A model generated the notes under the pieces. That model saw only the letters and a program-made list of their open reading frames with translations, ran no database searches and was not told the origin of the DNA. Shown in pieces: positions 42,833-63,430 of a stretch of 64,000 bases of DNA. Position numbers and translations under genes: made by a program. The stretch is from Trueperaceae bacterium (lineage in GTDB: Bacteria > Deinococcota > Deinococci > Deinococcales > Trueperaceae), in NCBI GenBank assembly GCA_965215565.1, contig CBDCDZ010000004.1, positions 1,184,001 through 1,248,000 of the forward strand, read 5' to 3'. Each line of letters opens with the position of its first letter. The first letter of the stretch is position 1.

Positions 42833-42927
42833 AACGCTCAGTGTAGCTTAAAAGAGTGTCAGCCAGCCAGATTTGCTGGTTTTACCTGACCTGCTGAAAC
42901 GCCGACGAGCTGACAGGTTCTTCTGTG

Positions 42928-43049
42928 AGCAGTTCCAAGACATACTGAGACGGGTGAGCGCAGATATCATCTCGGAATATGCGCGCTAGACGCCGTTTCA
43001 TCTAGTGAGCGTGTTGCTTCGCACAACTTCGTACACTCAAACCAGATGA
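42928..43049. repeat. Family A repeat, left part, interrupted by IS110 (remainder at 44174-44184)
   Basis: agcagttccaagacatactgagacgg...ctcaaaccagatga matches the intact copy at 57650-57783. Confidence 0.85.
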
Positions 43050-43065
43050 ACTTAGTATAGAGTTG

Positions 43066-44004
43066 TCAAGCCCCCTTCCACCTCTGTGGGTGCTGCTGAG
43101 TGACTTGCAGCATGAAACGAAAGAGTTCTCTTGCGAGATAGGTTTTGAGACTTCTTAGAGCAGCCCGGCGGGTCTTGCCTTGCTGCTGTTTCTTGTCGAG
43201 ATAGGCTCTTGTCGGTTCGCTGTGGCGCAGTCTGACTTGGGCAATCATGTGAAAGGTGCGGTTGAGCCGACGGTTGCCGCCGATGTTGAGTTGCCTTCTC
43301 TTCTGACCACCAGAAGAGCGCTCGACAGGCGCACAACCTGAATACATGGCAAAGGCGTGTTGTGAACGAAAGCGTCGGATGTCACCTGCTTCAGCAAGTA
43401 GCGTGGCGGCGTGAACGACGCCGACGCCAAAGACCTCTAAGAGTTCAGGCATCAGTTCGTCAACGAGGGCTTTCATCGCCTGCTCGAGCGTCTTGAGTTG
43501 TTCTTTAAGCACTGCAATAACGGCTTCGACGGCTTGGCGAGCCACCTCTAGCTCAAGGCTCGCTAAGCTCAGCTTGTGCGCTGTAAGCTGTTTAGCTAGC
43601 GCTTCTCGGGTGCGGGTCAGATGTTTGAGGTCTTCAACCGCTTGCCGAGGTGCAAACGTAGTCAGCTCAGGATTAGCCAAAGCAGCCCGAGCTACGTTTT
43701 CAGCGTCTACCTCATCACTCTTCTTGCGTCCTCTTTTGCTGCGGTACTGACTCGTCAGACTCGGACTAATGTCCACAACCTTATGGTCCTGCCCGAGCAA
43801 CGCTTGACTCAACCTCCGAGCAAAGGGGTTATTCGCCCCTTCAATAGCGCACCGCTGAACGTCATAGCGCTTTATCCAGTGCTCCAAAGTTGCCAAGCCC
43901 TCAGCCGTATTCGTAACGGTGCAGTGACCTAATACCTTGCCCTGTTTATCTAACGCTGCTGCGGTATGGCTCTGCGGATGTGGATCAACCCCTATAATGA
44001 CCAT
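43066..44004 (-). CDS. IS110 DEDD recombinase/transposase
   Basis: IIGVD, AIEG and KSDEVDA (DEDD); GVGVV.AA.LLAEAGD; ERSSGG catalytic Ser; GNRRLN. Confidence 0.95.
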   Translation of the reverse strand: MVIIGVDPHPQSHTAAALDKQGKVLGHCTVTNTAEGLATLEHWIKRYDVQRCAIEGANNPFARRLSQALLGQDHKVVDISPSLTSQYRSKRGRKKSDEVDAENVARAALANPELTTFAPRQAVEDLKHLTRTREALAKQLTAHKLSLASLELEVARQAVEAVIAVLKEQLKTLEQAMKALVDELMPELLEVFGVGVVHAATLLAEAGDIRRFRSQHAFAMYSGCAPVERSSGGQKRRQLNIGGNRRLNRTFHMIAQVRLRHSEPTRAYLDKKQQQGKTRRAALRSLKTYLARELFRFMLQVTQQHPQRWKGA

Positions 44005-44019
44005 ACAACCTCCTTAGGT

Positions 44020-44162
44020 TGCTGCTCACGGTAGCTGCTTATCCGTCTATGAGGCTACTAAGCGTCTTAGTATCAGGCAAGCTCCGTGTAGCTTAGTGAG
44101 CGAGGTGTGCAGTTCATCTGTTAGCCCTAAAGCTGATACTTGCTGGGCATCACCTCGCTTCT
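44020..44162 (-). ncRNA. Predicted IS110 bridge RNA (target- and donor-binding loops)
   Basis: Stem 44099-44107/44151-44159 encloses AGCAAGUAUC and CAGAUGA, which match the insertion target; second domain has donor-like ACUAAG and ACGGA. Confidence 0.75.
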
Positions 44163-44370
44163 CTTAATATACGGATACCTGCTATGTGAACCATCTTAAA
44201 CAGTGCGAGAAGAAATATGCTACCTTGAACTATGTAACCCTTACATCTTCACCGCTTACGGCAGCGCGCTGCTCTTCGATGTTCGCCCGAATGAGCACAA
44301 ACCGGGGGAAACGCGAGCGAAGAGTAGGTGCTTTTTCCAAACGTACATATTCCTCATTGCGGAGGAACAC

Positions 44371-44796
44371 ATGAAAACTAACAAGCCCAGGGTGCGTACA
44401 CTCCAGGAGCTTCAGCCTTTGGTCAAGCGCGGCGATTACCGCATCTGCGCCCACGCCGTCAAGCACGCCGCCTGTGAGGGCTTCACCGAGCGTGACATCG
44501 TCGGCACGCTGCTCTACGGGCGCGAACTGCTGCGCTACGTTCACGACGAGCGGCTCTTAGTCTTAGGCTATATCCGCCCTAGCGTAGAGGTGCAGATTCC
44601 CTTGCACGTGGTGCTCGAGTACGCCAAGCCGAGGTGGGTGGACGTTGTGACCGCTTTTATCCCCAAAGACGCCCATCACGCCATCTCGCGCGAACGCCTC
44701 GCGCAGATGCTGCGCTACGACCGCGCGCCCAAAGAGCGCGAGGGGAGAGAGCGTCGGGAGAACGTCAAGTTAGTCGGGCGTGAGCTGAGGTCTTAG
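44371..44796 (+). CDS. DUF4258 domain protein
   Basis: Y...HA.K....EG, PLHVV and VVTAFIP motifs; GGAGG RBS. Confidence 0.7.
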   Translation: MKTNKPRVRTLQELQPLVKRGDYRICAHAVKHAACEGFTERDIVGTLLYGRELLRYVHDERLLVLGYIRPSVEVQIPLHVVLEYAKPRWVDVVTAFIPKDAHHAISRERLAQMLRYDRAPKEREGRERRENVKLVGRELRS

Positions 44797-46397: not shown

Positions 46398-46552
46398 ATA
46401 CAGATTCCGATTGATTACTACATAAACCCCATTATGAAACTTTGCTTTCCCGGAGGAAAACTTCGTGACCAGCAAACACTGCGTGCTTCGTTAAAGCCGG
46501 AGTTTCTTCCGCTTTTGTGAGTGGGAACAAAGATATGAACTCGGAGCGGTAT
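46398..46552. repeat. Divergent family B (SNR-like) repeat
   Basis: Begins atacagattccgattgattactacataaac, like 2845 and 63364. Confidence 0.55.
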
Positions 46553-63295: not shown

Positions 63296-63430
63296 ATACC
63301 CTTTCCGGTTAAATACGCTACTTTATAGCGTATTTAACCCCGAGCGGAGCGAGTAGAAATAAGTACGGATTCCGGTTGATTACTGCATAAACTCCTTCGG
63401 AGTTGATTCCGTACTCACCGGAATCCGTAT
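63296..63430. repeat. Family B (SNR-like) repeat
   Basis: Same two modules as 2845-2979 in a different relative orientation. Confidence 0.8.

Follow-up and report, generated by a model that had tools for sequence, protein, structure and literature searches.

An IS110 element with a TC core in the terminus of a MITE-like repeat of a Trueperaceae bacterium, a likely bridge recombinase of the IS621 type

The closest described systems are the bridge recombinases IS621 (PMC11208160, PMC11208158, PMC13626964) and ISCro4/IS622 (10.1101/2025.05.14.653916), and what we state about them is drawn from the accessible parts of these sources. The left donor guide of IS621 consists of the 8 nt A123-C130 that precede the inner hairpin, its right donor guide has a bulge (U159/U160), and its left-target position 4 is non-canonical (PMC11208158). 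Mismatches at left-donor position 7 are tolerated, the left end of the element begins with CT-TGTAT (PMC11208160), and handshake pairing after strand exchange favours insertion over excision (PMC13626964). ISCro4/IS622 uses a 14-nt target, a 14-nt donor and handshake guides. Several further IS110/IS1111 elements (ISPpu10, ISPpu9, ISPa11, ISEc21, ISKpn4) have all their insertions in one conserved multicopy sequence, which is an IS3-family transposase gene for ISEc21, an attC site for ISKpn4 and a REP for ISPa11 and ISPpu9. In the literature consulted, the characterised bridge recombinases use a CT core, and the alternatives examined were limited to AT, GT and TT (PMC11208158, available text); the core is CT also in ISCro4/IS622 and ISPpu10 (10.64898/2026.03.19.712850). 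A 2026 preprint, in the part that could be consulted, describes that orthogonal cores are needed against cross-talk of two bridge RNAs and that GT lost efficiency (10.64898/2026.04.29.721476).

Here, we analysed the window, i.e., the whole stretch of 64,000 nucleotides from a Trueperaceae bacterium, which carries an IS110 element similar to these systems (Table 1). The element shares with IS621 the DEDD RuvC and Ser Tnp domains, the long left end and the predicted two-loop RNA, the 7+2+5 register with an 8-nt left donor guide, a bulged right donor guide and a post-exchange handshake, as well as the non-canonical left-target position 4, the predicted junction promoter, the YGTAT right donor and a multicopy intergenic repeat as target. 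In contrast to IS621, its core is TC, its natural right target guide has 7 nt, the RNA lacks the 5' accessory stem-loop, left donor position 8 is unpaired, and the target is a MITE terminus instead of a REP. With ISCro4/IS622 it shares the 14-nt target and donor and the handshake guides, and with ISPpu10, ISPpu9, ISPa11, ISEc21 and ISKpn4 the insertion into a single multicopy sequence, but no MITE terminus was seen among the targets of these five elements.

Table 1 Features of the IS110 element and of the interrupted repeat (positions of the window)
Feature	Position	Strand	Basis or remark
IS110 element with both TC cores	43048..44175	-	same exact ends in 7 full copies; predicted circle 1126 bp
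Left TC core	44174..44175	-	junction sequence, copy comparison
Right TC core	43048..43049	-	junction sequence, copy comparison
Left terminus of interrupted MITE-like repeat (TAGCAGGTA)	44176..44184	-	genome repeat copies
Rest of interrupted MITE-like repeat, 132-bp variant	42927..43047	-	ACA duplicated at 44187-44185 and 42926-42924
Recombinase, 312 aa; D7/E55/D97/D100 + S231	43066..44004	-	Pfam, PDB-chain matches, conservation
Predicted target-binding loop domain	44099..44159	-	outer stem 44159-44151 / 44107-44099; closing helix changes in relatives
Left target guide GCAAGUAUC	44135..44143	-	8/9 to target, mismatch at position 4; covariation
Right target guide CAGAUGA	44114..44120	-	7/7; covariation
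Target-loop handshake guide AC	44112..44113	-	complementary to donor positions 7 and 6 (GT)
Predicted donor-binding loop domain	44024..44092	-	constrained fold; compensatory changes in inner helices
Left donor guide ACUAAGAC	44064..44071	-	match at positions 1-6, none at 7-8
Right donor guide AU[AG]ACGGA	44042..44050	-	7/7 with 2-nt bulge; alignment; bulge as IS621 U159/U160
Donor-loop handshake guide UA	44040..44041	-	complementary to target positions 7 and 6 (TA)
Hairpin that would mask ribosome-binding site AGGAGG	44005..44022	-	predicted folds
-35 hexamer TTGACA, right end	43064..43069	-	overlaps stop codon; 18-nt spacing across junction in most relatives
-10 hexamer TATATT, left end	44166..44171	-	promoter whole only on circle

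The recombinase frame indeed translates to the 312 aa given in the initial annotation, but calling the protein compact does not set it apart, as the PDB construct of IS621, with a chain of 328 residues, is hardly larger. It consists of an N-terminal PF01548 (DEDD_Tnp_IS110) and a C-terminal PF02371 (Transposase_20) domain (Pfam), and the only solved relatives found by sequence were the distant IS621 (E 3e-16) and ISCro4 (E 3e-14) chains. In an alignment of 72 homologues from 120 listed, D7, E55 and D100 were conserved in 72/72 sequences, and D97 and S231 in 71/72; the DEDD domain at the N-terminus and the conserved serine in the C-terminal domain are those of the IS110 family. H252, M253 and Q256 correspond to the wedge positions of IS621, an equivalence that, like all others to IS621 residues given here, was taken from sequence alignment only. 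At least 200 related proteins were found at E <= 1e-40. The close loci with names belong to Trueperaceae (63-69% identity) and Deinococcus (~50%); these loci were found by alignment query of genome contigs, whereas a single-protein query gave no match.

The initial annotation had placed the element at 43048..44184. An element is present there, but its proper end is position 44175, since the nine bases 44176-44184 belong to the host repeat. The left junction on the minus strand reads ...TAGCAGGTA-TC-CGTATAT (core 44175-44174), and the right one reads ...ATACTAAGT-TC-ATCTGG (core 43049-43048). Both junctions were recovered on the minus strand at the positions first reported for them, as were the 9-bp stem and the four segments resembling guides that are described below. 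The left end is 169 nt long, only 16 nt separate the stop codon from the right core, and terminal inverted repeats are absent. TC is the only sequence common to both junctions in 7/7 copies. A long left end, a short right end and a short shared core in the absence of terminal inverted repeats are features of the IS110 group.

The search for further copies that had been proposed as a check revealed seven full copies in the genome, six identical and one with a single substitution, and all seven are inserted at GCAGGTA-TC-ATCTG in the context TAGCAGGTA-TC-ATCTGGTTTGAG, with unrelated sequence upstream. The exact 14-mer target occurs empty at 234 further sites. Exact left junctions were found 11 times (the seven full copies and four short remnants), and exact right junctions nine times. 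The sister species has a 92%-identical copy with the same guides at the same site, and the contigs from a biofilm run of another study (X4) contain a ~90% relative whose match stops at the same repeat terminus. In runs X1 and X2, read depth on the element was ~6 to 9.5 times that of its surroundings; the two runs represent one sample, from which the assembly may have been made. No circle joint was seen in the contigs of four sequencing runs, in which rare forms are dropped. We conclude that the IS110 element is real and recently active, that it probably works like IS621, and that it belongs to the IS110 group outside the CT-core subgroup.

Besides the full copies, the genome contains a degraded partial copy (G000:C4:3452692-3453285) between two direct ~76-bp MITE copies. 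Its alignment has 105 gap positions in 646 columns, with many small deletions and no substitutions, and it is possibly a long-read assembly artefact. Four MITE copies retain 8-27 bp of the left end of the element and one retains ~11 bp of the right end (G000:C4:687469, 3341778, 269802, 160181 and 695976); these are old insertion scars, apparently left by short-homology deletion rather than by clean excision. A paralogue with 56% identity and an internal TAA stop (G000:C4:420850-421990) has its own bridge RNA for a different target; its left guide is UGGUUCAUC, and its right flank does not fit its right guide.

That the element interrupts a host repeat family was correctly recognized: it is inserted into a MITE-like repeat, 11 bp from the left end. 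The repeat had been likened to REPs, a comparison that we had to abandon. Its modal length is 111 bp (62/153 copies with both ends), its termini are the inverted repeats TAGCAG...CTGCTA, and a 3-bp duplication flanks 106/153 copies (shuffled mean 5.2, maximum 12). About 385 left ends with no more than two mismatches are present in the genome, the repeat occurs in 3/3 genomes of the genus, and one copy splits an IS630-like gene with duplication of CTA. Terminal inverted repeats, target-site duplication, the lack of coding capacity and many dispersed copies are the features of MITEs, i.e., of non-autonomous DDE-type miniature elements; the host repeat corresponds to them in its size of ~111 bp, its termini, the 3-bp duplication and its hundreds of copies, and differs from them by variable internal hairpin modules. 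In view of the inverted repeats and the duplications, the REP/RAYT identity was rejected. REPs are short palindromes that go along with a Y1 transposase of the RAYT type and lack target duplications. The only Y1_Tnp match was to a domain within a 1319-aa frame that resembles restriction-modification proteins (G000:C4:3784707-3788666, minus strand), and the repeat motif is absent within C4:3780000-3795000. A TA-duplicating IS630-type MITE was rejected as well because the duplication comprises 3 bp; the 2-bp test gave 26/153 versus 17 for shuffled sequences, and the TA belongs to the element. Terminus scans of the host genome revealed no autonomous partner, and the ends of four of the nine DDE_Tnp_4 matches and of two IS630-like regions, which were inspected, did not fit the MITE ends. 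The repeat is modular: forms of 111, 132, 153 and 207 bp, with inserted hairpin units, exist among the copy in the window (42927-43047) and the ~385 genome copies. Its internal 13-bp inverted repeat has compensatory changes between subfamilies A and B, which suggests a conserved RNA or DNA hairpin.

The IS621-type bridge-RNA architecture, proposed from the left end of the window copy, was borne out by a predicted two-loop fold with compensatory stems in relatives. The 170-nt left-end region folds with a z-score of -4.07, and 0/200 shuffles were as stable; it contains the 9-bp stem AGCGAGGUG/CACCUCGCU (44159-44151 / 44107-44099). In the alignment of 15 left ends, the target loop is closed by an 11-pair helix and encloses an inner hairpin, and the donor loop is built likewise. 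In the closing helix of the target loop, 9/11 pairs are changed on both sides among the 15 relatives. Over all stems, 96% of the cells are paired and 15/21 pairs are changed on both sides; 0/500 shuffles reached this pairing score and slid structures were also far below it, the consensus stem structure being partly derived from the same 15 sequences. The predicted structure thus has the two stem-enclosed loops of IS621-type RNAs, each with the order guide-hairpin-guide. The minimum-energy fold of the free RNA sequesters the donor guides, and opening all guides would cost 8.1 kcal/mol. Rfam gave no match at E <= 1. An alternative hairpin between the left donor guide and CUUAGUA is possible on paper here and in the sister species; it is absent from other relatives, and we did not accept it as functional. 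Five relatives (L040, L046, L049, L064, L066) have insertions of 20-70 nt within the donor loop, with both donor guides intact.

The two target guides had been read as AGCAAGUAUC at 44144-44135 and CAGAUGA at 44120-44114 (minus strand). When the left end was shuffled by mononucleotides 20,000 times, the two target-guide matches coincided in 8 shuffles, and the full set of four guide-like matches in 0. We compared guides and insertion sites in 43 of 64 loci (those with usable ends) and, in addition, in the window, L002, L004, L005 and the paralogue; L032 and L042 (duplicates) and L033 (shortened locus) were left out. We used anchors to parse the guide windows and read several rows again manually; in L031 and L034, the left target guide was moved by one base. 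Over 29 unique combinations, the left guide forms 168/203 Watson-Crick pairs with site positions 1-7, compared to a mean of 83 and a maximum of 115 after shuffling. The right guide forms 94/110 pairs with positions 10-14 over 22 unique combinations, compared to a mean of 40 and a maximum of 63, the significance being overstated by these shuffle controls because the relatives are not independent. There are 24 distinct left and 16 distinct right guide forms, and the guides follow their insertion sites. The guide readings thus hold beyond this locus, as in relatives the guides change along with the sites, and this natural covariation suggests that the recombinase would be programmable. The occupied sites all mismatch the left guide at position 4, the position that is non-canonical in IS621 and tolerant in ISPpu10 according to the visible text of 10.64898/2026.03.19.712850. 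The two guide-perfect sites and the 52 subfamily-B sites (9/9 with the left guide, including one G-T wobble) are all empty, which with seven events is not significant alone. Upstream of L079 (Trueperaceae), the left target guide, GGUAUCAUC, is likewise similar to the MITE-like repeat family but is 3 nt out of register, as though its aim had moved to the second TC.

The donor segments AUACUAAG (44073-44066) and UAGACGGA (44049-44042, minus strand) had been left with an ambiguous register, which could be resolved by the comparison with IS621 and with relatives. The left donor guide corresponds to the 8 nt preceding the inner hairpin, ACUAAG(AC), and the right one to AU[AG]ACGGA with a bulge as in IS621. 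Among relatives, positions 1-6 of the left guide match in 92/96 cells and position 7 in 3/16, which agrees with the tolerance described for IS621. At position 8, the more distant elements all match (28/28), compared to 1/7 of the nearest group, the window included; the guide of the window is unpaired at both positions 7 and 8, whereas IS621 pairs position 8. In the right guide, AU is conserved and the bulge is variable; read without a bulge, it is weak at positions 12-14 (49/80 versus 41 for shuffled sequences). Compared with the joined ends including the core, the right guide spans the core and the left one matches at positions 1-6 only. The donor varies little, and covariation is visible only at positions 3, 5 and 10. 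The extra AU in AUACUAAG faces a short subterminal inverted repeat of the kind described for IS110 ends in the accessible part of PMC11208160. In the Deinococcus loci L081-L091, joining of the ends yields a perfect inverted repeat of 9 bp (TTGACATAC...GTATGTCAA), similar to the longer subterminal repeats of IS1111.

As in IS621, the handshake guides fit the non-cognate DNA once the strands are exchanged: 0/4 pairs are possible before the exchange and 4/4 after it. In relatives, the target-loop handshake base is complementary to donor position 7 in 6/6 unique combinations (A-T, U-A, G-C) and to its own target in 2/14; for the donor-loop handshake base, the corresponding values are 11/13 with target position 7 and 1/8 with its own donor. 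When the ends are joined, they create the predicted promoter TTGACA-18-TATATT, whereas no promoter match was found on the linear element. The 18-nt spacing recurs in most relatives, except for the Deinococcus subgroup (L081-L091), in which the right end is 6 nt shorter and the spacing is 12 nt.

To summarize, an IS110 element, of which seven near-identical copies occupy the left terminus of a MITE-like repeat, very probably moves as an IS621-type bridge recombinase, with a left-end RNA predicted to pair with the target and with the joined ends around TC. In this mechanism, rare excision or copy-out would join the right to the left end (ACTAAGT-TC-CGTAT) and thereby complete the TTGACA-18-TATATT promoter. 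Transcription from it would yield a two-loop RNA of ~140 nt that begins at about position 44160 and lacks the 5' accessory stem of IS621, and also the recombinase mRNA, with its ribosome site within a hairpin. The target loop would pair with GCAGGTA-TC on the bottom strand and TC-ATCTG on the top strand, and the donor loop with ACTAAG and TC-CGTAT, as judged from pairing on paper and covariation. By analogy with IS621, the DEDD/Ser composite sites would then cut and exchange strands at the core. Since both handshake dinucleotides pair only after exchange, they would drive insertion and disfavour excision, and a non-autonomous repeat of ~385 copies as target would provide many non-coding landing sites.

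The TC core proposed for the window copy was confirmed in relatives. Among 42 loci, with cores read freely beside independent anchors, the right ends have TC in 35/36 cases and TT in the remaining one, and TC was also read at each of the 35 left ends for which an anchor existed, four of these having two candidate anchors. The nearly invariant T at position 9 that characterizes the CT-core IS621 subgroup is not present. As the right donor YGTAT is common to the element and IS621, the register is fixed as T8-C9 here versus C8-T9 in IS621. In IS621, G63 reads T9, and a preference for C or G at position 8 comes from A61 and N84 (PMC11208158, accessible part); G63, A61 and N84 align here to N58, G56 and S80, respectively. 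E-G-A is invariant in 72/72 homologues, and position 58 varies across the wider clade. We infer from these alignments that the protein may set the TC core. N58 as the single reader of C was rejected, as this position varies among TC-core relatives. For the Streptomyces relatives (33% identity), no identical copies were found from which the core could be read.

It is possible, if on the doubtful side, that TC is set by the RNA guides alone; the protein would then also recombine CT and not be orthogonal to IS621. Indeed, IS621 accepts AT, GT and TT cores when the guides match and reads its core mostly via main-chain atoms (both PMC11208158, in the text available), and the residue aligned to its G63 is N, G, A or S among TC-core relatives. 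However, the target guides vary freely, whereas the core is TC in 35/36 right ends of elements whose proteins have 42-71% identity, which points to a constraint outside the guides, and all three core-reading positions of IS621 are replaced. It is about as likely as not that the protein sets the core; the clade (at least 200 proteins from Trueperaceae, Deinococcus and scattered hosts) would then be a natural TC-core branch, with E-G-A-x-N versus E-A-T-G in IS621, that is efficient and orthogonal to the CT-core IS621/ISCro4, and whose nearest members lack core pairing in the left donor guide and are aimed at a MITE end.

The choice of the insertion site within the repeat family could have a second layer. 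Here, guide pairing would be necessary, but the protein or the DNA structure would read beyond the 14-nt window, with GTTTGAG after the site or the internal 13-bp inverted repeat of the MITE as candidate features. We consider this unlikely, although all seven full copies and the degraded copy are in the GTTTGAG subfamily, to which 70/234 of the empty sites belong (Fisher p = 2.8e-4), the target lies in one arm of the inverted repeat with compensatory changes between subfamilies A and B, and a target stem-loop raises the efficiency of ISPpu10 (10.64898/2026.03.19.712850, accessible part). Two of the occupied MITEs are identical over 70 nt, so that at most six events are independent; the sequence after the copy of the sister species is GTTAGAG, and that after an old right-end remnant is GTCAAAA. 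No guide pairing explains the preference beyond one possible A-T pair at position 16. Finally, a single insertion followed by spread of the MITE::IS composite through the MITE transposase or recombination, in which case 7/7 would say little about guide specificity, is very improbable: the copies at C4:2531372 and 3105968 do share an identical 70-nt MITE flank absent among the empty sites, and 4/7 composites retain the MITE ends with the 3-bp duplication, but the other flanks of the occupied MITE copies differ, with agreement at only 25-59/70 positions, in contrast to the identical IS copies. Moreover, an empty MITE has the same sequence as one of the occupied ones, the host genome revealed no autonomous partner with such ends, and the covariation across relatives is independent of the seven copies.

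Recombination by a bridge recombinase whose RNA is predicted to pair with both target and donor is the reading that we retain. Its mechanism is already known, so the element itself is unsurprising; it varies from the known systems in its TC core, in a left donor guide without core pairing and in having a MITE as target. Neither a characterised TC-core system nor a MITE-terminus-targeting bridge-RNA element was found in the literature, including the accessible portions of PMC11208160, PMC11208158, PMC13626964, PMC11187229, 10.64898/2026.03.19.712850, 10.1101/2025.05.14.653916, 10.1101/2025.10.25.684509, 10.64898/2026.04.29.721476 and PMC13604230, whose supplements were partly visible; the visible part of the PMC11208160 supplement contains no Deinococcota IS names and no TC cores. 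As the published surveys span thousands of IS110s, the clade may be in their tables, and a TC-core orthologue may be among the 72 screened in 10.1101/2025.05.14.653916 (partly accessible). The locus is an unusually clean natural example, with seven recent copies, 234 empty sites, a full handshake, a natural 7-nt right guide and a different core, in which a probably RNA-guided IS parasitises a MITE end. A TC enzyme of natural origin would extend the range of possible targets and could serve as a second channel beside CT systems, i.e., as a second, possibly non-cross-reacting genome-editing enzyme, and the contrast between TC and CT makes the question of what sets the core testable by swapping a few residues.

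The frame adjoining the element (44203-44796, plus strand) is divergent from the IS and unrelated to it, with a weak DUF4258 match (E 5e-4) below the cut-off. A second dispersed repeat family (TACGGATTCCG...GAATCCGTA) occurs in the window at 2846-2911, 46399-46464 and 63364-63429. In the sister genome (G002), this repeat flanks copies of another IS110 with 32% identity (L020, L028), which suggests a second repeat-targeted element.
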